Origin: Alphaproteobacteria bacterium
GTDB lineage: Bacteria > Pseudomonadota > Alphaproteobacteria > Rs-D84
DNA length: 64,000 nucleotides
Reading direction: 5' to 3'
NCBI GenBank assembly: GCA_017520675.1
Contig: JAFXFG010000031.1
Span: 574-64,573 of the forward strand
This document shows, one piece after another, positions 2,386 to 52,900 of this stretch. Below the pieces are notes generated by a model that saw only the letters and a program-made list of their open reading frames with translations, was not told the DNA's origin and ran no database searches. The first letter of the stretch is position 1, and each line of letters opens with the position of its first letter. Made by a program: the position numbers and the translations under genes.

Positions 2386-4383
2386 ATGAAAGTCTTGGTC
2401 GATGTGCATGATAAACGTTGGAATAAATTTAAAATAGATTTTGATGAAATTGCAAATGCAGTTGTCGGAAAAAAATATGAAAATTCCGAAGTGTCTGTGA
2501 TATTGACTAATGATAAAGAAATACAGCAAATCAATAAGCAATACAGAAATATCGATAAACCAACAAATGTATTGTCGTTTGAACTGGGGGACGATATTTT
2601 GCTGGGGGATATTTTTATTTCAATTGATACTGTACAGAGAGAGGCAAATCTAGAAAAGATAACAGTTGTTGAACATACGGCGCATATGTTGGTGCATGGG
2701 GTGTTGCACTTGTTGGGATACGACCATATCAAAGATGATGAAGCAGAGATTATGGAAGAAAAAGAAACAAAAATTTTAAAAAAATTGGGTATAAAAAATC
2801 CATATGCCATTGATGATGAGTGGCAATGTGATTCTGCGGAATGTTGTCCGTGGGGTGGTGTTGTCGCGTGGATTAAAAAACTTAAAATAAAAGAAAATGG
2901 GGTTTGGCAATATTTCCTATACGCATTGTTTGGTGGGGTTGCTTCATTTGGCTTTGCGCCGTTCTATTGTTGGTGGTTGGCTGTACTGGGGATTGGTGGT
3001 GCGTATTGGTTGACAGTCAAACAAAAACAAAAGTGTGGATTTTGGCGTGCTTGGTTGCGTGTATCACCGTTTGGTGCAGTTTATGCAATATCTATGTTTT
3101 GGTGGACTTTGCATTCAATTTATGTTGTGCCAGAATTGGCAAATCAATTTGCTGTTTGGACAATCCCAGGTGTGATTGGATTAGGAATTGCAGGTGCGTT
3201 TATATTTGTATGGCCATTTGTTGTAATTTCCTGTGTGCGCAGAAATCCTGCGTATAGCGCGATTTTATTCGCGGCTGTTTGGGTGTTGGTGTTGTGGGGG
3301 CGCGAGTGGATGTTTACAGGGTTTCCATGGAATCCAATTGCAAATATATCTTTGAATTTTCCGATGTTGGCTAATTCTATGTCTTTGTGGGGCGCGTTGG
3401 GGTTGACATTTGTAATTGTTGGTGGAATTGCAACCATAGTTGAGGTTATGCGAAAGCCAAAGTCAAAGGTTGTGTGGTGGGGATTGTTGGTATTTGTGTT
3501 GTTGGGGGCTGTGGGAATGTTGTGGGGGCGGTATAATATGCAGTTGGCAACAGTGGGTGAAAGCAATAATCATAAATTAATTCGAATCGTGCAACCTGCG
3601 TTAAATCAAGCACAAAAGGCAACACATAGCAGAGAGCAGGCAATAATAAATGCAGAAGATAATATGCGGGTCTTGTTCGAATTGGCGTCCGTTGATGAAC
3701 GACCTGATTTAATTGTTTTTCCTGAAACATCATATCCTTTTACGGTTTTGAAAGGGGATATAATGCCTTTGTCACAGGCGTTGGGCACAGATGTTATTGT
3801 CGGTGCAAATTTCTTGGATAATGGCAAGGTTTATAATGCAATGCTGTTCGCAGATAGATATGGTCAAATAAATCATATATACAGCAAGTCGCATTTGGTG
3901 CCGTTTGGTGAATATAGTCCATTGGGGATTTTGCCAAGTCCTGTAAATTTATCAGCAGGTCAGGGGGCAGAATTAGTCAATGTAAATGATTTGTTGGTTG
4001 CACCTGCGATATGCTATGAAATCATCTTTTCTGATTCTGTGATTCCAGATGGCAAAAAAACACCAAGTGCAATTGTGAATATTACCAATGATAATTGGTT
4101 TGGTAATACCCCAGGTACTTATCAACATCTGGATATGGTGCGCAGATATGCAATCGAATCTGGGGTGCCGGTGGTGCGTGCAAATTATTCGGGTATTAGT
4201 GCGTTTGTCTTGTCTGATGGTAATGTGTTGTCGCAATTGATGATTGGTGATTCTGGGGTTCTGGATGGCTTTGTGTGGGGTGCACATAATACACCATACA
4301 GAATGCTGGGGATGAATTTTTGGATGATTGTGATATTGGTATTTTCTGGATTGTGTTTGTTTGTGTTGCAACGAAGAGATTAA
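2386..4383 (+). CDS. ybeY-lnt: Fusion protein: YbeY endoribonuclease domain (N-terminal ~150 aa) joined to apolipoprotein N-acyltransferase Lnt
   Basis: The N-terminus carries the HGVLHLLGYDH YbeY zinc motif. It continues without a stop into Lnt-type transmembrane helices and a CN-hydrolase domain (ICYEIIFSD, NDNWFG). This is one uninterrupted 665-codon ORF. Confidence 0.75.
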   Translation: MKVLVDVHDKRWNKFKIDFDEIANAVVGKKYENSEVSVILTNDKEIQQINKQYRNIDKPTNVLSFELGDDILLGDIFISIDTVQREANLEKITVVEHTAHMLVHGVLHLLGYDHIKDDEAEIMEEKETKILKKLGIKNPYAIDDEWQCDSAECCPWGGVVAWIKKLKIKENGVWQYFLYALFGGVASFGFAPFYCWWLAVLGIGGAYWLTVKQKQKCGFWRAWLRVSPFGAVYAISMFWWTLHSIYVVPELANQFAVWTIPGVIGLGIAGAFIFVWPFVVISCVRRNPAYSAILFAAVWVLVLWGREWMFTGFPWNPIANISLNFPMLANSMSLWGALGLTFVIVGGIATIVEVMRKPKSKVVWWGLLVFVLLGAVGMLWGRYNMQLATVGESNNHKLIRIVQPALNQAQKATHSREQAIINAEDNMRVLFELASVDERPDLIVFPETSYPFTVLKGDIMPLSQALGTDVIVGANFLDNGKVYNAMLFADRYGQINHIYSKSHLVPFGEYSPLGILPSPVNLSAGQGAELVNVNDLLVAPAICYEIIFSDSVIPDGKKTPSAIVNITNDNWFGNTPGTYQHLDMVRRYAIESGVPVVRANYSGISAFVLSDGNVLSQLMIGDSGVLDGFVWGAHNTPYRMLGMNFWMIVILVFSGLCLFVLQRRD

Positions 4384-4598
4384 AACTGTCCAAGTTGTAG
4401 AATAATTTGCTTTAATATCCATACGCGGACAGCAGATGAAAGATTTACGTCTGGGGTGCGTGTGGAATCAAGTTCGCTGATAATTGATGCAACTGATTTG
4501 CCTTGGCGTTTTGATAGCACGTGCAGGGCATCAATGAATTCTGGTTCAAGTGTGATGCTGGTCTGGTGGCCTGATAATGAAACAGATAATTTTTTCAT
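4380..4598 (-). CDS. Ribbon-helix-helix protein of the RHH_4 family (PF13467-like)
   Basis: KKLSVSLSGHQTSITLEPEFIDALHVLSKRQGKSVASIISELDS matches the RHH_4 pattern (RSVSL.GH.TSITLE..FW.AL.EIA...G.S...LI.EID). It is the last gene of the coupled 5-gene operon. Confidence 0.6.
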   Translation of the reverse strand: MKKLSVSLSGHQTSITLEPEFIDALHVLSKRQGKSVASIISELDSTRTPDVNLSSAVRVWILKQIILQLGQF

Positions 4599-43642: not shown

Positions 43643-43993
43643 ATGTTAATGAAAAAATTATTTATTGTTTCTGGGATAATGATGGGCAGTGTGGCGGCCT
43701 ATGCCAATATCCCCAGTTCTGAATATATGGGACAGAAAATTGCGGAACATGCAAATAATGTGCAAAATCCACATTCAGTTACCAAGGCGCAGATTGGATT
43801 GGGAAATGTAGAAAATCTTAATCAGACAAATGCGGATAATTTGACAAGTGGTACGGTTTCCTTTGCGCGTCTGCCGGTTGGAACATCGGAAAATACGGTT
43901 GCAGCGGGTGATGATGTTCGATTTAATACAATTGCAACCGCACAACCAAATGGTACACCACCATCTGGTTCTGTTTTTGTGTGGTTTGAATAG
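43643..43993 (+). CDS. Small secreted protein (116 aa) encoded after the secretin gene
   Basis: Signal peptide MLMKKLFIVSGIMMGSVAAYA and RBS AAGGAGG. It contains SGTVSFARLPVGTSENTVAAGDD, reminiscent of phage tail-fibre motifs (tentative). Confidence 0.5.
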   Translation: MLMKKLFIVSGIMMGSVAAYANIPSSEYMGQKIAEHANNVQNPHSVTKAQIGLGNVENLNQTNADNLTSGTVSFARLPVGTSENTVAAGDDVRFNTIATAQPNGTPPSGSVFVWFE

Positions 43994-43997
43994 TTAA

Positions 43998-44028
43998 GTG
44001 CGCGCGGATAATGCGCGCTTTTTTTGTT
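43998..44028 (+). terminator. Rho-independent terminator
   Basis: GCGCGCGGATAATGCGCGC followed by TTTTTTT. Confidence 0.75.
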
Positions 44029-44037
44029 GTGCTTTCA

Positions 44038-44070
44038 TAAAAAAATTCCCCAATCGGGGAATTTTTTATT
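44038..44070 (-). terminator. Rho-independent terminator downstream of rpsT
   Basis: AATTCCCCAATCGGGGAATT flanked by A and T runs. Confidence 0.7.
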
Positions 44071-44075
44071 CTTTA

Positions 44076-44336
44076 TTAAGCCATTTTGGAAACTTTCTTG
44101 GCCAAACGCGAAATCTTGCGGGCAGCACGCTTTTTTGGCATTACTTTGCCGGCAGCCTTCATGATTTTGCTCTCTGCATTGCGGGTGGCAACGATTGCAA
44201 CATCTTTGTCACCAGATGTAATGGCAACAATTGCTTTCTTGGTCGCTGTCTTAACCGCACTGCGACGGGCAGTGTTTATTGCGTTCTTTTTGGCCGAAAC
44301 CAAAATTCTTTTTTTAGATGACTTATGATTCGCCAC
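44076..44336 (-). CDS. rpsT: 30S ribosomal protein S20
   Basis: MANHKSSKKRI...ARRSAVKTA..KA is the typical S20 sequence. Confidence 0.9.
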   Translation of the reverse strand: MANHKSSKKRILVSAKKNAINTARRSAVKTATKKAIVAITSGDKDVAIVATRNAESKIMKAAGKVMPKKRAARKISRLAKKVSKMA

Positions 44337-44409
44337 GTTATTTTCCTTTTATTTTTGATTTGATTTTGATATTTTATAAGAAACAAATATAAAATCAAGG
44401 AAAAATAAC

Positions 44410-44997
44410 ATGATCTATTTAATTGCAATTTTATTTTCTTATTTATTAGGTAGTATTCCAATGGGATTGTTGCTGACCAAGGTCGCAGGTAGGGGCGATT
44501 TAAGAAAGGTCGGCAGTGGTAATATTGGGGCAACTAATGTTATGCGTGTCGGTGGTTTGCGTATGGCAGGGTTGGTGTGGTTGCTGGATATGTTGAAGGC
44601 AATTGTGGCGGTCTTGATTGGAAAATATGTTGCAGGTGGTGCATTTGGTGCATGGTGCGGATTTGTCGCAATTGTGGGACATTGTTATCCAATATGGTTG
44701 CGGTTTAAGGGCGGAAAAGGAATTTCTTCGTTGTTTGGGGTAATGTTGGCTATGTCGCCATTGGTGTTTGCAATTTGTGGAATTGAATGGTTGCTGGTCG
44801 CGTTGTATTCTGGTATTTCGTCTTTGGGGGCAACAGTTGTGTTTTGCCTTATACCTGTGTTTGGATTTGTGATGGGGGGCGGTATCGGTTGGCCTTTTCT
44901 GGCAATTGGGCTGTTGTGTATGTCGCGACATCGCGAAAATATCAAACGACTAATTACAAAAAACGAATCGAAAATAGAGTGGAAATGGAAAAAGTAA
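44410..44997 (+). CDS. plsY: Glycerol-3-phosphate acyltransferase PlsY
   Basis: GSGNIGATN motif and five TM helices. Confidence 0.85.
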   Translation: MIYLIAILFSYLLGSIPMGLLLTKVAGRGDLRKVGSGNIGATNVMRVGGLRMAGLVWLLDMLKAIVAVLIGKYVAGGAFGAWCGFVAIVGHCYPIWLRFKGGKGISSLFGVMLAMSPLVFAICGIEWLLVALYSGISSLGATVVFCLIPVFGFVMGGGIGWPFLAIGLLCMSRHRENIKRLITKNESKIEWKWKK

Positions 44998-45059
44998 GTC
45001 TTTTGTCTTTATTTTTGGCGCTTTTTGTGGTATAATGCCCAATAATGAGGAAAGAGAAT

Positions 45060-45923
45060 ATGAAAAAATCATTTCTTTTGTTTTTCGGTATGTTTTGTTT
45101 GTTTGTTTCTGATGCAGGTGCTGCAAGGCCGTCTATGTCAGAGAAAATGATGGCTGCACCAAGGGCAGGGGTGGCATCTAAAAATCAGATTTCTGCCGCT
45201 GCAACATTAACCGCAGACGAGGCTGTTGTTAGTAAAGCAAGTCTTAAAGCGGGTGATGTGAATGCTAATTTAGAAATTAATCCTGATGAAATGCTGTCTG
45301 TTAAAAAGAATATGCGTGAAAAGGAAAGATTGGCTTGCATTAGCAATAATATCGGTATAAGTAATACTTTTGTTTGGGCATCACGATATAGTGATTCTTC
45401 TAGTTATGTGTCAATGGTTGAAGATGTTGAAGAGCCTGAGAATAATACTTGTTTCGTAAAGACTGCGTTGAAGTCAAATGATCCAAAAATTAATGTTTCA
45501 AATGTGCCGACAAGGTATTTTGAAATGGGGCAGGTGGTTACTTGTGGCGAATGGGCAGATTATGAGGCTTTGAAGCAACAGATATTGGATGCAAAAAAGA
45601 AGGGGCGTACGCTGGGGACTATTGCTGCGGTTGTCGGTGGGGCAGGTGTTGGTGTCGGCGCGATGGAATTGTTTGGAAACAAGGTAATCGGTGGTAAGGT
45701 CGAGGGGCAATATAATGAAAATTTGTCTGATGCACAATTGTTGCGTTCGCAATTGTTGACTTTGCAAAAGGAAGATGCAGCGAAATATAATGAATTTACA
45801 ACAAAGTTGGGACAGTTAAGAAAAAAGTGTACTGAGTTTGAAACCTCTTATAAAAATCAAACAGAACCGGCAGACTGCACTAAGTATAAGGATGTGTTTC
45901 CTTTGCTGGATTCGATGAAATAG
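45060..45923 (+). CDS. Secreted protein; short paralog of the giant Cys-rich protein, sharing its N- and C-terminal modules
   Basis: Signal peptide plus ARP...GVAS, and a C-terminal YFEMGQVVTCGEW...GGAGVGVGAMELFGNKVIGGKVEG aligning with YFALGDTFTCGSW...LGTGGAFLGNKIADGKIGG of the 49933-53175 protein. RBS GAGGAAAG. Confidence 0.6.
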   Translation: MKKSFLLFFGMFCLFVSDAGAARPSMSEKMMAAPRAGVASKNQISAAATLTADEAVVSKASLKAGDVNANLEINPDEMLSVKKNMREKERLACISNNIGISNTFVWASRYSDSSSYVSMVEDVEEPENNTCFVKTALKSNDPKINVSNVPTRYFEMGQVVTCGEWADYEALKQQILDAKKKGRTLGTIAAVVGGAGVGVGAMELFGNKVIGGKVEGQYNENLSDAQLLRSQLLTLQKEDAAKYNEFTTKLGQLRKKCTEFETSYKNQTEPADCTKYKDVFPLLDSMK

Positions 45924-45935
45924 TTTTTGAAATAA

Positions 45936-45963
45936 TTCAACCTGCTGTGGCAGGTTTTTTTAT
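45936..45963 (+). terminator. Rho-independent terminator
   Basis: ACCTGCTGTGGCAGGT followed by TTTTTTT. Confidence 0.75.
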
Positions 45964-46008
45964 CTGGATATTGTGCTTTATTTAATTAGAAGGGTTTTAT
46001 ATTATATG

Positions 46009-47037
46009 TTTATGTCAGATATTTATAACAAGTTATTGATTTTGCGTACGCCTGGGATTGGACCCGTAAAGTTTAATTCATTAATTAAACGATTCGGTAA
46101 TGTGGCATCGGCTGTGCTGTCTTTGGGACCGGATGTTGCGTTTTGCGATTCGGTTAAACGCGAAATGGAAAAAGCACAGCAACTGGGGATACATTATTTA
46201 TCAGATGATGATGTGTTGTATCCTGAAAATTTGAGAAAAGTAAAAAATCATCCGCCAGTGATTTCTGTGCGTGGCAATTTAGATTCTTTATCAAGACCGA
46301 TGGTGTCGATTGTTGGTACAAGGCACGCAACAGTTGCAGGAATGAATTTTGTCGCAGATTTGGCACAGGCATTTGCCGATTCGGGGACGGTTGTTGTTTC
46401 GGGTATGGCAATCGGTACAGATACCGCAGCACATCGTGGGGCATTGCGTGCACAGGGCAATATGCAAACAATTGCGGTCTTGGCGGGTGGGGTGGATTAT
46501 GTTTGGCCGCCGGAAAACGAATCGTTATATTATCAAATACTAGAACGTGGTGCGGTTATCAGTGAGATGCCAGTTGGCTTTGTCCCAGTTGCAACTAATT
46601 TTGTTCAACGAAACAGATGGGTGGCAGGATTGGCAGATAAACTGATTCTGGGTGAGGCTGATTTAAAGTCTGGTTCTATGACAACTGCCCGATTCGCAAT
46701 CGATTATGGACGCGAATTGTGGGCAATACCATCACATCCCGCAGATTTGCGCGCAGTTGGGCCGAATTCTCTGATTCGGTCGGGTGATGCAAAACTGTGT
46801 ATGGGGATACAAGATTTTTTTAAAACAGAAAGGTTTGATGCAAATTCTGAAAAAAAATTAGAAAAGTTTAATGCGGAAAATAATCTTCTTGATGCGTTAG
46901 GAACAAATCCAGTGTCAGAATCTGTATTGGCAGAAGTTGTCAAAAAATCTGTTTCGGAAATTAAACGAGATTTGGTTGTCTTGGAATTGCAAGGTTTAGT
47001 TCAAAAAGTCGATGGTGGTTATGTTCGTTTGGTTTGA
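46009..47037 (+). CDS. dprA: DNA processing protein DprA (Smf)
   Basis: Rossmann-like DprA core (VVSGMAIGTDTAAHRGAL; GETDLKSGSMTTARFAIDYGRELWAIP) and a C-terminal winged helix. Confidence 0.85.
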   Translation, partial: FMSDIYNKLLILRTPGIGPVKFNSLIKRFGNVASAVLSLGPDVAFCDSVKREMEKAQQLGIHYLSDDDVLYPENLRKVKNHPPVISVRGNLDSLSRPMVSIVGTRHATVAGMNFVADLAQAFADSGTVVVSGMAIGTDTAAHRGALRAQGNMQTIAVLAGGVDYVWPPENESLYYQILERGAVISEMPVGFVPVATNFVQRNRWVAGLADKLILGEADLKSGSMTTARFAIDYGRELWAIPSHPADLRAVGPNSLIRSGDAKLCMGIQDFFKTERFDANSEKKLEKFNAENNLLDALGTNPVSESVLAEVVKKSVSEIKRDLVVLELQGLVQKVDGGYVRLV

Positions 47038-47391
47038 AAAAAATGTCTATACAGTGTATATACAAAGGGCAGAAAACAGCCAAAAAAACGAATCGTTGTC
47101 AAAAAATAAATGTTCAAAAATCGGTTAATATTTAGTTGTAAATTGATTTTTATATTCTAAATTATCAATCGTATCCAAAAGAAAAATAAACAAACAAATT
47201 AAAGCGAGAGAGTTTAAAGTAGGAATAAAAAATATTTGTTAATTCTGTGAATTGTAATCTGATTTTTGAAAGGAGAAATTAATATTACAATTCATAAAAA
47301 AAGAATTAATAGGTATTTTCCCTGGGGTGGTTTTTATAACCTGTGGCAGGGTGGAATTGGCTTTCTCGGAAGGAAGGAAAGGAGAAACAAT

Positions 47392-48678
47392 ATGCAGGCA
47401 CAAACAGCGGCAAATACACAAATGACAAACTTGGAAAATATCAAGGGGGCCATTGCCGCAAAAATGGATTCTGCATCTTTTACTTCTTGGATTGCACCTT
47501 TGACCATGGATGTTGTTGATGGAAATTTGGTATTGTGTGCACAAAATCAATTCTCGGCTGATTTTATTACAAGTGTTCATAAGGCTGTTTTAGCTGATGT
47601 AGCAGCAGAATTTGGTTTGGGGTTGGATATCGTTGTTCGTAACAGTGCAACACGTGCAACTGCATCAATTGCAAATGATAATCAGGCACAGGTATATGCA
47701 CCAGTTGTAAAGACTGTTGCGGATTCTGTTAATTTTGATAGTTTTGTTACATCTGATGAAAATGCATTTGTTGTATGTGCATGCAAAAAATTGGCAACAG
47801 GAACTGCGCCTTTTACACAGTTGTTTATTTATGGGGCTGCTGGTTGTGGTAAATCTTTGTTGGCCGATTGTATCGCAGGTGCATGTACAGGTCGTGTTGT
47901 AAAAATGTCTGGCGCACAATTTGTTTCTGAATTTACACGTTCTTTGAAAGAACATAATGTTTTTGCATTTAAAGATTTCTGCCGTAACTGCAATTTGTTT
48001 ATTTTGGACGATGTTCAGGCGTTGGCTGGTAAAAAGGCATCAACCGAAGAATTCTTGCAATTGATTGTTGATTTGCGTAATGCAGGTAAAAATGTTGTTT
48101 TGACTGCGGATGCAGCCCCCAGCAATTTGACAGGATTTGACCGTCATTCTCAGGGTGTTTTGGCATCTGGATTGGTTGCAGATGTTGCAGTACCAAACGC
48201 GCATGTTAAAACTGTTATCTTGCAACGCGCAGGTGTCAAGGCAGATGTTGCAACTGCTCTGGCTACACGCGTCGCAAATGATGGCCACTTGATTGCAGGT
48301 GTTGCGACAAAAATCAAAACATATGTTGACTTGATGGGTGCAGATGTTGATATTGATGTTGCAAAACGTCTGTTGGCAGATACATTAACAGCCGTTAAAA
48401 CACCAAACGCGATGGTTCGTGATATGTGCGAAAAATTAGGTGTTTCATATGATGCAGTTTGTGGAAATGGGCGCAGTCGCAACTTGGTTTTTGCACGTCA
48501 GATAATGATGGTTGTATTAAAGAATGCGACATCTTTGTCCTTGGCGGAAATCGGTAATTTTGTTGGTGGTCGTGATCATGCAACAGTTTTGTACGCGGTA
48601 AAGCAGATTGAAAAACAAAAGGCAACAGACTTGGTGTTGGCAGCGCAGATAGAACAATTTATCGCAGACTGCAAATAA
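47392..48678 (+). CDS. dnaA: Chromosomal replication initiator DnaA
   Basis: AAA+ Walker A GAAGCGKS, box VII and a C-terminal DNA-binding domain (VVLKNATSLSLAEIGNFVGGRDHATVLYA). Start chosen at MQAQTAAN with RBS AAGGAAAGGAG. Confidence 0.9.
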   Translation: MQAQTAANTQMTNLENIKGAIAAKMDSASFTSWIAPLTMDVVDGNLVLCAQNQFSADFITSVHKAVLADVAAEFGLGLDIVVRNSATRATASIANDNQAQVYAPVVKTVADSVNFDSFVTSDENAFVVCACKKLATGTAPFTQLFIYGAAGCGKSLLADCIAGACTGRVVKMSGAQFVSEFTRSLKEHNVFAFKDFCRNCNLFILDDVQALAGKKASTEEFLQLIVDLRNAGKNVVLTADAAPSNLTGFDRHSQGVLASGLVADVAVPNAHVKTVILQRAGVKADVATALATRVANDGHLIAGVATKIKTYVDLMGADVDIDVAKRLLADTLTAVKTPNAMVRDMCEKLGVSYDAVCGNGRSRNLVFARQIMMVVLKNATSLSLAEIGNFVGGRDHATVLYAVKQIEKQKATDLVLAAQIEQFIADCK

Positions 48679-48696
48679 AAATTAAATATAATGGTC

Positions 48697-48768
48697 TATC
48701 TAAATGCGGTGCCGGAAACTCATGTATCATTTGTACACATCGTTTCCGGCACTGCGTTTATCTAAACC
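48697..48768. repeat. Imperfect inverted repeat / hairpin downstream of dnaA
   Basis: TATCTAAATGCGGTGCCGGAAAC ... GTTTCCGGCACTGCGTTTATCTAAA. A related GCGTT..TTATCTAAATC segment recurs at about 48845-48875. Confidence 0.6.
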
Positions 48769-48919
48769 ATTCTATTTAATTTTATAAAATTAACCATAAT
48801 AATTCATCTAAAACCAATCCTGCCAACTTATGTAACTTCTGTACACTGCGTTGTCGGGATTGATTTTATCTAAATCATTATAATTAATTTTAACCCCTGC
48901 AAGGGGCGGGTAAGAATAA

Positions 48920-48962
48920 GTCCCTGCGGGGCAATGGATACCCGCCTGCGCGGGTATGACGA
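48920..48962 (+). repeat. Solo copy of a 43-bp palindrome-containing repeat
   Basis: GTCCCTGCGGGGCAATGGATACCCGCCTGCGCGGGTATGACGA. Confidence 0.8.
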
Positions 48963-49061
48963 CGAACGAGGGGGGGACGAAGGGTTGGGGTGTGTGTGAA
49001 AAGCCACATCGATGATAAAGAGTTGAATATTTATAATTTTTGTGGGGTGCTCACATACACA

Positions 49062-49103
49062 CGTCATTCCCGCGCAGGCGGGAATCCACTGCCCCGCAGG
49101 GAC
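49062..49103 (-). repeat. Inverted copy of the 43-bp repeat, abutting the 3' end of the GIY-YIG gene
   Basis: CGTCATTCCCGCGCAGGCGGGAATCCACTGCCCCGCAGGGAC with a perfect ATTCCC-N8-GGGAAT core. Confidence 0.8.
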
Positions 49104-49105
49104 CT

Positions 49106-49420
49106 TTATTCGTTGTTATAACCGTTTTCAGATAATACATCTGGGTATAAATCATTCCAATCTGGATTTTTTTGAATAATTAAGCGATATTTCCAGTTTC
49201 GTTGCCATTTTTTTAATTGGCGTTCGCGCAGAACCATTTCTTTTATTGAATCGTGCCATTCATAATAAACCAGATTGTTGATATTGTATTTAGAAGTAAA
49301 GCCTGGGATGATTTTATTTTTATGTTGCCAAATACGTCCAACTAAATCGGTGGTGGAACCGATGTACAATGTTCCCATTGGGCCGGAAGATAAGATATAA
49401 ACATAACCGCCTGATTTCAT
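49106..49420 (-). CDS. Small GIY-YIG nuclease-family protein (COG2827/YhbQ-like)
   Basis: GYVYILSSGPMGTLYIGSTTDLVGRIWQHK...YYE is a GIY-YIG signature. The gene is bracketed by inverted copies of the 43-bp repeat. Confidence 0.75.
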   Translation of the reverse strand: MKSGGYVYILSSGPMGTLYIGSTTDLVGRIWQHKNKIIPGFTSKYNINNLVYYEWHDSIKEMVLRERQLKKWQRNWKYRLIIQKNPDWNDLYPDVLSENGYNNE

Positions 49421-49458
49421 AGTGCCTAATTATAATGCACAAATAAAAAATATCAATA

Positions 49459-49900
49459 TGTCCCTGCGGGGCAATGGATACCCGCCTGCGCGGGTATGAC
49501 GAGAGTGTAAGGGCGGGGCCCGATACGCGGGTATGACGAAGAGACGGGGGTGGGGTGTTGGGTGTTTAATATGTCCCTGCGGGGCAATGGATACCCGCCT
49601 GCGCGGGTATGACGAGAGCGTAAGGGCGGGGCCCGATACGCGGGGGCGATGAGGGCTGAGTGTGTTGGGTGTTTAATAAGTCCCTGCGGGGCAATGGATT
49701 CCTGCCTGCGCAGGAATGACGATGAACGAGGACGAGGCCTGATACAGGAATGACGAGTGTGTGAGTGGGCGCGATGCGCGGGGGCGATGAGGGCTGAGTG
49801 TGTTGGGTGTTTAATATGTCCCTGCGGGGCAATGGATACCCGCTGCGCGGGTATGACGAATGTGTGAGTGGTGGGGAATTAAAAATCCCCCAATTGCTTG
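49459..49900 (+). repeat. Tandem array of four copies of the 43-bp repeat with 107-138-bp periods and partially conserved inter-repeat sequence (not CRISPR)
   Basis: Copies start at 49459, 49573, 49680 and 49818. The spacers share GGGTGTTTAATA and CGGGTATGACGA sub-repeats. Confidence 0.8.
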
Positions 49901-49932
49901 GGGAATTCGTGTCGATTGATTTTGGAATATTG

Positions 49933-52900
49933 CTATTCCGACATCGATGTCGAAATCATATCGCCATATGTACCGACTTCGTCAGCACCGATAAAGCAAC
50001 GGATTTTCGACCCGATATTGTCCATAAATTCTTGATAGGCTTCTTGTTCAGCTGAATCAAGTTTTGTATTATGGGCATCTTTGACAATGTGATATGCGGC
50101 CAAACCACCCGCCAATGCGGTGCCAGCACCAACAATCGTTGCACCACCCCATTTTTGGAACCAGCCATCTTTTGCATCAGTGTTTGTGAACTTTTCGCAC
50201 TGTTCTTTTATTTTTGCTAATTCGGTGTACGCTTTGCCGGTTTTAGTTTTTTGTGTTTCTATGACTATTGTGCTTCCATCGGTGTCAAGAAGGTCGTCGT
50301 GTTTAAACTCCAGTGCCTCACGAGCATTTGATATCATGGTGTTCGCACTGAGCTGTGTCATGCCAGATGGCAATTCCTGTGCACTTTTTACAATGCTTTC
50401 AAAGGCGGATATTGCGTCTTTAGCATTCTTGAGCGCAGTGTTTAGTGCTGGTTCTGTTAATTGCTGTGTAGAACTACCATTTTTCCATTGTTCAAACATA
50501 TTCAGTGCGGCCTGGGCATCTGTTTTGCAAGAATTGATGTTGTTGATGATTTTCTTGGAACGGTTGTTCCCGTTCAAACCACCAATTTTACCGTCGGCAA
50601 TCTTGTTGCCCAGGAATGCACCGCCGGTACCCAATGTAACTGCAGATGCGGCAGTTGCCCAGAATTTTTGACGACGTGCTTTGTCGGTGGCTTTGCCGTC
50701 TTTGTCTTCCAGACCGGTGGCAACACGTGCTGCCTGGCCGGCTGCATCAGCCAATGCCTCTAAATCAGCAGATGATAACCATGAACCACAGGTAAATGTA
50801 TCACCCAATGCAAAGTATGCAGTTGACCATGAAGCGTTATTTTTTATTGCTTCTTGGATATATTTATCGTTGGACTGCAATGTTACACGCAGGCGACAGA
50901 ATGAACCATATAAATCATTGCTGGCCACGAATTGGTTCGTGTCAAGACCAGACATCGCATAGTTCTTTGGTACATCTTTGCCTTTTAGTTTTACCCACAT
51001 GTATGTAGAGCCGTTGTCTTTGTTGCCTATTATGCCACCGGCATTTGATGACAGGCACATATTTTGTTCTTTGGTTAATTTTGCGTTATATTTTGCCTGG
51101 GCTTCTTTTTCAATGTCATAGACCAAATCCTTGAACAAACTGTTCGCAACCTGTGTTTGGCGATATGTGTCAACTGATACATATACAGGTTGATCAAAGA
51201 TGTTGCCTGTTTCATCCATTTTATAACATATACCTTCGACACCGGATTTGTTTGTGCAGATTTCTTGACCGTTTTCGTCAACTTTTTTTACACCTTCTAC
51301 GGCGGTCATTTTGCTTGCACTGCCGGCATCATACCAACCAGAGCGTACAGAGTCAGCGGTTTCACCACCGTTGGTCCCCCATGTGTTGGCTAGATTGTTA
51401 TTTTGGTTAATATTGAATTTTGCGGTTTCAATTGCCAGATGTTCTGCACAGACATCAGAGTCTTTGACGGTGTTAACACATAATCCCAGTATGATTGTAT
51501 AGTCAAGTACACCACCGACCTTGTTCATTGATTTATCAAATGCAGCGTCGCCAGTGCTGGTCAAACTGGACATTACGTCTGTACGATTGCGATAGCAATT
51601 GACATAGTCAGGACCGCACATTGATCTGACGCAACTGCTTGCCAATGTTTGACATTGTTTTTTCATTTGTGCAATTGCTGCATCGTTGTATGAATTGTTC
51701 AATGTTGCGTCCAGATTTGCAACAACCCCAATTGGATCAAGTTTGGTGTCTGCGTGTGGGAACAGGGTTGTAAACGCGTCCCCTTGGTTGTATGTATAGT
51801 TAAAGCCACCAGATGTTGTCGGGTTTTGCGCCGCATAAATACAGTTTGGATCGGTGTTCACAACAGATGTGCAACCACGTTGAATTTCTTGGTATGTGTT
51901 GTCGCCATTTATTCCGATACCACTGGCCAATTTATAGCATGCAGCGCCAGAACCACCACCGCATACGCGCATCGCGCAAGAGCGGATTGTCTGTGTGCAC
52001 TTATCCTTGGCATCAGTATCAAATTTATTTACTAGGTCAGAAATCTTGGACATCATTCCAGAATTCATACGGGTAGAATATGCCTGAGAAAAGACATCTT
52101 CTTGGTTGAATTCATCGCGCAATTCAGAATTGGTTGGCATTTTGCCGTCGCCAATAAATGTTGCATAGCAATATTTATTTTGACCAATTGTATCCATACA
52201 TTCGCCACGAATGTATCTGTTGATGTCCGATTTGCTTAATGCTTCGGAAAGGGTGTCAGATAATTGTGTGGTTGTGCCTTTTAATATCGATTCAACGGTT
52301 GCAACAAGGGCACCTGGGGTGTTCTCGTAACATTTGTATGGATTCTTGGTGCAGGCATTTAATATACATTGATCAACAACACGATAACAGGTCGATACTG
52401 CATTTATTGCCGCCAATGTTGCGCCGTCTGCAATCATTGTGCCAACACGACTGCTGGTTTCAGGGTCAACAGTGCGTGATGCAGTGCCGAATAGTTCTTT
52501 TAAGCCATCGCTTTGACAGCGGGCCAGTACGGAATCGCAACTGACGCGTTGTTTTTTGAATTCTGAATTTGATGTGCATAGTTCAAAATCAGAACCACAA
52601 ACATTTTCGCGATTTAAACATGTGGTGTAACGACGCACGCAATCAGATGTGTTGTACATATTTGATATTGCACCAGCAGTAATTAACTGACCCAGTGCGC
52701 TGTCGTCGTCTGGATATGTGTAGTCAGTGATTTCGTCAAATTCATTTTTGCTGGCAACCTGAGATAAATTGTCCATATTGGTTGTGCCAAATAACTTTTG
52801 AATTCCACCAGTTGAACATTGGTACAGTGTGCCAATGCATTGTGGCATCTTGGCATGGAATAGAACCTTGGTTGTACATTCTTCAAAGTTTGAACCACAG

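Follow-up and report, generated by a model that had tools for sequence, protein, structure and literature searches.

A probable Ssn/SRM system with an extended hairpin repeat beside dnaA in an uncultured gut alphaproteobacterium

Introduction

A 64,000-nt stretch of DNA from an uncultured gut alphaproteobacterium (contig JAFXFG010000031.1; 'the window' in the following) contains a small GIY-YIG nuclease gene between inverted copies of a 43-nt repeat, just past the end of dnaA. We conclude, with a probability of about 85%, that this locus is an Ssn/SRM system, in which a nuclease of the Ssn family is combined with repeats that are its cognate sites. The kind of element is already known, as the system was published in 2025; the novelty lies in a lineage-specific extension of the repeat and in comparative evidence on the relocation of the cassette formed by the gene and its two flanking repeats.

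About half of the dRS3 repeats in Neisseria belong to a 28-nt oriented hairpin, the NTS, CGTCATTCCCGCGMAVGCGGGAATCYRG (Chenal et al., Nat Commun 2025, PMC11893778). NTS-like repeats, referred to as SRM, bracket a small single-domain GIY-YIG gene, ssnA (CDD cd10448), in several phyla (PMC11893778). SsnA binds the NTS solely as single-stranded DNA (ssDNA), on one strand, and cuts it a few nucleotides upstream, with the oriented flanks of the NTS acting as determinants of both binding and cleavage; it is inactive on RNA, and its characterised relatives have no activity on double-stranded DNA (dsDNA) (PMC11893778). Four Ssn homologs, including the Wolbachia enzyme, have been found to be active, and in N. 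meningitidis SsnA lowers transformation by NTS-bearing DNA (PMC11893778). Within the Alphaproteobacteria, Ssn/SRM is known from Wolbachia, Rickettsia, Sphingomonas and Devosia (PMC11893778), so an earlier, sequence-only reading of the window was mistaken in calling such repeats unexpected in an alphaproteobacterium.

Results

An Ssn-family protein between SRM units

The published SRM pattern, HGTCWYN(0-2)YYVSBRHN(0-5)WNVSBRGN(0-2)RNCYNB, matches four of the six copies of the 43-nt unit GTCCCTGCGGGGCAATGGATACCCGCCTGCGCGGGTATGACGA, nothing else in the window, and none of 50 dinucleotide-preserving shuffles. Two of these matches bracket the nuclease gene ssn (49106..49420, minus strand), one on its 5′ side at 49474-49501 (-) and one on its 3′ side at 49062-49089 (+), the sign giving the NTS-sense strand here and for all SRM copies below. 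The latter copy, CGTCATTCCCGCGCAGGCGGGAATCCAC, shares 27 of 28 positions with the N. meningitidis NTS consensus, the last base being the sole mismatch, and holds a perfect dRS3 core. The sequence-only reading had pointed to the 43-nt unit, its inverted copy and the bracketed GIY-YIG gene past dnaA, all of which are confirmed by exact matches, by PF01541 and by the coordinates. The resemblance to dRS3 and NIME repeats that it proposed is likewise borne out, as the repeats appear to be the cognate SRM/NTS sites of the Ssn family, to which the bracketed gene itself belongs.

The 104-aa product of ssn is a single-domain protein, in which Pfam identifies a GIY-YIG domain (PF01541, residues 5-78, E 1.2e-14) and no second domain. 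It is 52% identical over 90 aa to the SsnA ortholog of N. gonorrhoeae (pairwise E 3e-34, tblastn E 1e-23), the published family criterion for SsnA homology being E < 1e-10. Y8, Y19 and E66 align with Y6, Y17 and E64 of the N. meningitidis enzyme, residues whose mutation abolished cleavage; together with R29, H33 and N85, they are invariant across a 13-sequence alignment. A sequence search of the PDB gave no match to the protein at E <= 0.01.

The ssnA locus of N. gonorrhoeae is the only one in its chromosome and has canonical NTS copies on its flanks. Two chromosomes of this species sit among plasmid records, and the comparison above used ssnA of one of them. L112 (NZ_CP119142.1 1880219-1883488; L numbers denote loci fetched for comparison) comes from a 2.17-Mb N. 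gonorrhoeae record, listed as a plasmid in PLSDB but evidently chromosomal. In its ssnA, no ATG, GTG or TTG lies in frame ahead of VYILASQ, so the gene may be a frameshift or pseudogene in this strain, and the nearest NTS copies point away from it.

The cassette and its array

Read in the orientation of the gene, the cassette runs from CGTCATACCCGCGCAGGCGGGTATCC-ATTGCCCCGCAGGGAC through about 40 nt with a promoter, ssn and a further 2 nt to the inverted unit. Both NTS arrows face inward, and the CGTCAT ends lie outermost. The 5′-side inverted repeat is an exact unit at 49460..49502 (-), which is also the first copy of an array. Between it and the ssn start codon lies a putative sigma-70-like promoter (49429..49456, minus strand; TTGATA, 16 nt, TATAAT), proposed from 11 of 12 matches to the consensus. 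The 3′-side inverted repeat (49062..49103, +; core ATTCCCGCGCAGGCGGGAAT) starts directly after those 2 nt that follow the ssn stop codon. One further exact unit, at 48920..48962 (-; pattern match 48934-48961), lies outside the cassette, about 140 nt past the 3′-side repeat, and makes up a divergent inverted pair with the copy at 49062, the two being 100 nt apart.

The same inward layout surrounds homologs of 72-87% identity at other sites as well as distant homologs that bear plain Neisseria-type NTS (L124, L126). The arrangement of a nuclease gene within terminal inverted repeats, as seen by the earlier reading, is thus one that recurs at other genomic sites in relatives. In L051 (2144-2455, minus strand), a 78%-identical homolog has its two flanking repeats facing outward, like those of N. 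gonorrhoeae, with a degraded inner module in the upstream copy.

Upstream of ssn, four direct copies of the unit follow each other at spacings of 113, 107 and 138 nt. The second, at 49573..49615 (-; pattern match 49587-49614), is exact; the third, at 49680..49722 (-), has the core variant ATTCCTGCCTGCGCAGGAAT with compensatory stem changes to ATTCCTGC/GCAGGAAT; and the fourth, at 49818..49859 (-), carries a 1-nt deletion in the loop region. The spacers are partly conserved and contain truncated half-units, namely GATACGCGGGTATGACGA at 49522..49539 (-), in which the CGTCAT-proximal arm alone is kept, and a similar one at 49741-49756; half-units of this type are numerous in relatives. What had been described as a tandem array consists of these four spaced direct copies; a clean head-to-tail array at the locus was not detected by Tandem Repeats Finder.

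All six copies lie within 48920-49859, with none elsewhere in the window, and the exact GTCCCTGCGGGGCAATGGATACCCGCCTGCGCGGGTATGACGA is found on the plus strand at 48920, 49460 and 49573, where 0 matches are expected by chance. The palindromic core has no further copy in the 64 kb and never arose in shuffles. Its form ATTCCC-N8-GGGAAT is exact in one of the six copies (49066-49085), and the remaining ones have ATACCC/GGGTAT or ATTCCT/AGGAAT.

A covarying hairpin with a lineage-specific module

Each unit is built from CGTCAT, an 8-bp stem enclosing a 4-nt loop, ATCC and then TTGCCCCGCAGGGAC. In a set of 51 distinct units taken from related genomes, pairing holds in 95.4% of the stem cells. Both partners have changed in four of the eight stem pairs, as in ACCCGC/GCGGGT, ACCGGC/GCCGGT, ACCGAC/GTCGGT and TCCCGC/GCGGGA; the observed covariation score was reached by none of 500 shuffles. 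G2, T3, C4, A5 and C25 are invariant, and C1 is present in at least 90% of the units. As a single strand, the unit has a DNA fold of -10 to -12 kcal/mol.

The TTGCCCCGCAGGGAC module, which lies 3′ of the NTS part, folds into a second, small hairpin. Compensatory changes are present in a few of its copies (CCTC/GAGA, CCAC/GTGA), and there is a variant family of the form GTC-GCA-GAC. When a 23-nt signature of the module was scanned in one genome per species, 90 stretches were found, all of them from about 24 genomes of uncultured gut Alphaproteobacteria; these include Candidatus Enterousia, the 'uncultured Rickettsiales' UMGS1304, metagenome-assembled genomes (MAGs) from goat, sheep and roe deer, and human gut MAGs from the Hadza. 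In these 90 stretches and the window, the published SRM pattern has 96 matches, 66 of them with the module, and more distant ssn homologs have repeats without it. Judged from this distribution, the second hairpin appears to be specific to a lineage of gut 'Enterousia-like' Alphaproteobacteria.

Two candidate associations of the repeat were rejected. A C-terminal 'GY' tail of the 104-aa proteins does not consistently co-occur with the 3′ extension of the repeat, as the tail is present without the extension in L128, and the extension is of another kind in L122. A known RNA family was ruled out as well, since Rfam has no real match: at the gathering threshold it returned tRNAs only, and a permissive search added only miRNA-precursor matches far below threshold, caused by long inverted repeats.

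The relatives also contain a second repeat type, TGTCAT-stem-CTTGAC-stem-ATCCAGGT, whose stem covaries; 16 of its copies in the fetched loci match the SRM pattern. It brackets 99-aa Ssn paralogs that are about 50% identical to the window protein (L020 1093-1392; L077 6248-6517, minus strand) and is found without a gene, too, in inverted pairs with a distance of about 30 nt that resemble miniature inverted-repeat transposable elements (MITEs; L022 ~3830-3925, L038 ~248-330). The window has no intact repeat of this type and one degenerate remnant of it, at 48990-49013.

Dispersal and genomic contexts

The 90 stretches and the window together contain 142 SRM units, of which only 15 have an ssn homolog within 150 nt; the repeat is therefore mainly dispersed as gene-less copies and arrays. 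At least 42 units come from the fetched stretches of RGIG2127, the closest species-level relative. Its contig JAFQTD010000029.1 shares about 78-93% nucleotide identity with the window and has dnaA (~78 kb), the homolog of the 1082-aa gene that follows the array in the window (~108 kb) and the ssn cassette (0.4-0.9 kb) at three separate places. The ssn open reading frame (ORF) is identical between the two at 313 of 315 nt (99.4%) and the cassette at 432 of 441, whereas dnaA reaches 93.5% and the rest of the shared DNA 78-90%.

An identical Ssn protein is encoded in two contexts, between a 1080-aa gene and dnaA (L117, L119-L121) and between a penicillin-binding-protein gene and three different neighbours (L114-L116, L118), and homologs at least 72% identical occupy seven unrelated flank contexts. 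In L001, the cassette is located between sufBD and rpmJ, which lie directly beside each other in the more distant relative L044, an empty site. The DNA past dnaA varies in every relative examined, being occupied by efp, a DUF1015 gene or a 472-aa gene, and several short-read contigs end right after dnaA. Since the repeat is dispersed in related genomes and ssn is not conserved at this site, neither a repeat unique to this locus nor a gene held in place in repeat-less relatives was found, either of which would have spoken against the element.

Array length differs between assemblies as well: upstream of ssn, there are four copies in the window and L119, three in L117 and L121, and one in L120, with one or two on the dnaA side. 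SRM clusters further coincide with synteny breaks. Both results agree with the suggestion of the sequence-only reading that the locus is a recombination hotspot, and its idea of a mobile mini-element gains from the seven contexts and the near-identical ORF, with the reservation that movement is deduced from comparison only.

Polymorphism is also seen at the repeats themselves. At one site, the upstream repeat exists in three alleles: it is intact in L014, has a hairpin insertion of about 40 nt in its loop in L003, L005 and L006, and has lost the CGTCAT arm as well in L001, L002, L004, L007 and L008. At a repeat boundary, L003 (4360-5120) and L006 differ from L001 (~4360-4480) by an indel with a 153-aa ORF that begins just past the 3′ repeat of the cassette; it is present in some strains of one species.

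Neighbouring elements and dnaA

The dnaA stop codon is at 48678, and on the other side of the locus lies the 1082-aa minus-strand gene, whose stop codon (49933-49935) is the low end of its ORF. The interval between the two genes is a GC-rich repeat mosaic in a genome of about 39% G+C. Immediately past the dnaA stop, it contains two adjacent AT-rich palindromic elements of about 107 nt (48678-48784 and 48786-48892), with arms of 42-43 nt and a common TTATGTA...TGTACAC centre; their GC-rich inner stem differs between the two copies yet stays self-complementary in each. This element is dispersed in relatives (L022, L041, L049, L056, L064, L068, L107), often beside SRM arrays. It falls within the span covered by the sequence-only reading, which does not mention it.

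DnaA itself (47266-48678) is divergent, scoring 251 bits where the TIGR00362 cut-off is 344 bits, and its relatives are sometimes publicly annotated as 'AAA family ATPase' or 'DnaA/Hda family protein'. Upstream, the order plsY-x-dprA-dnaA is kept in all relatives examined. On the plus strand, GC skew is unusually high in the first 30 kb of the window, at 0.2-0.35, and drops to about 0-0.15 beyond 50 kb, without a change of sign.

Discussion

The locus shares with the published Ssn systems (Chenal et al., 2025) a single-domain GIY-YIG protein of about 100 aa, hairpins of the SRM pattern in inverted orientation on both sides, the CGTCAT 5′ flank and the ATCC 3′ flank, many gene-less copies in related genomes and the catalytic residues that were mutated there. 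It differs in the additional conserved 3′ module TTGCCCCGCAGGGAC, in a C-terminal tail that is about 10 aa longer, and in the orientation of the nearest repeats, which point inward in the window and outward at the N. gonorrhoeae locus. NIMEs are arrays of 50-150-bp repeat units bounded by dRS3 palindromes, and the window likewise has palindrome-delimited units of about 107-138 nt, an exact ATTCCC-N8-GGGAAT core in one copy and a clustering of repeats at variable, rearranged loci; however, most of its copies have ATACCC/GGGTAT or other covarying stems, and the host is not Neisseria.

By analogy with its characterised homologs, the window protein would cleave ssDNA. It would recognise the hairpin on the NTS-sense strand only, through the stem and its oriented flanks, and nick the DNA a few nucleotides 5′ of CGTCAT. 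Given the inward NTS arrows with CGTCAT on the outside, the predicted cuts fall just beyond the cassette, one on each strand. The ssDNA substrate could arise in replication, recombination, transformation or conjugation, and the cutting of incoming or exposed repeat-bearing strands would plausibly shorten recombination tracts, as in Neisseria; a role in limiting the recombination of incoming DNA therefore appears conceivable in this lineage too. Breaks at the arrays could favour rearrangement and changes in copy number. Comparison indicates that the cassette relocates or passes between genomes. The repeats have dispersed as gene-less copies and arrays, which lie at the breakpoints of rearrangements and differ in copy number.

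Several points weigh against this account or parts of it. The homology of the protein was established against the N. gonorrhoeae ortholog only. The nearest NTS pair in N. gonorrhoeae is divergent, not convergent, which means that the flanking geometry is not uniform in the family. The single upstream copy in L120, which is otherwise 99.5-100% identical to the window, could be a collapse in short-read assembly. In addition, the block common to two contexts (48999-49543) exceeds the inverted repeats by 41-63 nt and ends in other repeats, so relocation may be ordinary recombination between dispersed repeats, which accounts for it equally well as transposition driven by the nuclease. Finally, among the relatives compared, there was neither a target-site duplication nor a precise empty site at close range. 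Mobility thus follows from comparison, as distinct from a demonstrated transposition.

The way in which the cassette would move is where the strongest alternative differs. It regards SRM-ssn-SRM as an autonomous selfish element, with Ssn as a transposase or homing enzyme that acts on ssDNA hairpins and the gene-less repeats and arrays as its non-autonomous derivatives. This overlaps with the assignment to the Ssn/SRM systems, but here the nuclease itself would power the movement, instead of acting as an ssDNA restriction factor that serves the host. It is consistent with the inverted repeats that bracket the gene at every site, with the seven contexts, with the near-identical ORF in diverged genomes, with the empty site in L044, and with the second repeat type, which brackets a paralog and forms gene-less inverted pairs in L022 and L038. 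An analogy to MITEs or to repetitive extragenic palindromes (REPs) and their associated tyrosine transposases (RAYTs) was also raised as a hypothesis in the original description (PMC11893778). In REP/RAYT systems and the related bacterial interspersed mosaic elements (BIMEs), too, a small gene lies between hairpin repeats that are presumably recognised as ssDNA, and repeat clusters occur genome-wide. The enzyme of the window, however, is a GIY-YIG protein and not an HUH Y1 (IS200/IS605-type) transposase, and its repeats are inverted around the gene, which would place the cuts on opposite strands. Similarly, the gene-less pairs of the second type resemble MITEs such as the Correia elements of Neisseria in being short, dispersed and bounded by inverted repeats, but are associated with no transposase of a known insertion sequence family and with no identified target-site duplications.

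Further evidence speaks against a self-mobilising cassette. No strand-transfer activity is known for a GIY-YIG domain by itself, the predicted cuts, one per opposite strand, would excise no strand, neither target-site duplications nor excision junctions were seen, and the common block reaches beyond the repeats. A preference for the lagging-strand template, as in IS200/IS605-like elements, would predict an orientation bias relative to GC skew. With local GC skew as a proxy for replication direction, such a bias of the cleavable strand was rejected: the orientations number 74 and 68 overall, and 32 and 40 at strong skew (p = 0.41). We therefore consider the selfish element a tentative explanation that is unlikely on balance. 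It is similarly doubtful, if not slightly more so, that the nuclease itself drives the spread of the cassette, and we think it rather improbable that the cassette is a new class of self-mobilising transposon, a GIY-YIG counterpart of IS200/IS605 and REP/RAYT. If it were, the near-identical cassette in diverged genomes and in many contexts would be the footprint of self-mobilisation, and a 100-aa GIY-YIG nuclease acting on ssDNA hairpin ends would spread gene-less repeat pairs and arrays.

It is very unlikely that the repeats are REP-like structural or regulatory hairpins, such as terminators or mRNA stabilisers, with which the nuclease is only incidentally associated. They are indeed GC-rich, intergenic in the window and placed at gene ends, and the covariation of their stems would be compatible with an RNA structure as well. 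However, their association with ssn holds over sites and lineages and, in the literature, over phyla (PMC11893778), and their conserved non-palindromic parts, CGTCAT and ATCC, match the determinants of Ssn binding and cleavage. Moreover, no T-run terminators were found, the upstream copy sits upstream of the putative ssn promoter, no Rfam family matches, and the published SsnA is inactive on RNA.

More improbable still is a classical homing endonuclease that cuts dsDNA, with the repeats as remnants of its target or homing sites. The GIY-YIG catalytic domain and a weak, sub-threshold match to a group I intron endonuclease model would fit, but the match, at 16 bits, stays far below the TIGR01453 cut-off of 56 bits, and the 104-aa protein lacks a DNA-binding domain such as the one tethered to the nuclease in I-TevI-type enzymes. 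There is also no intron, intein or phage context, and the characterised relatives show no activity on dsDNA. Lastly, the proposal that the repeats belong to the replication origin of the chromosome, for which their position immediately downstream of dnaA would speak, is the least likely of all, since GC skew is positive on both sides without an inflection, the interval from 43839 to 50991 is free of DnaA-box-like sites and their count over the whole window equals chance, the DNA past dnaA is entirely different in relatives, and the same repeats are found at dozens of other loci.

The several contexts of the cassette, its near-identity between diverged genomes, the variation in copy number and the coincidence with synteny breaks leave the assignment of the locus to the Ssn/SRM systems unchanged. 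They do, however, touch on a question left by the 2025 paper, namely whether the repeat-gene-repeat unit is mobile. The locus would supply a new enzyme-repeat pair from an uncultured gut lineage, with a longer recognition unit of two hairpins. To our knowledge, Ssn nucleases are the only site-specific endonucleases that cut exclusively single-stranded DNA, and each such pair of enzyme and repeat may serve as a distinct molecular tool.

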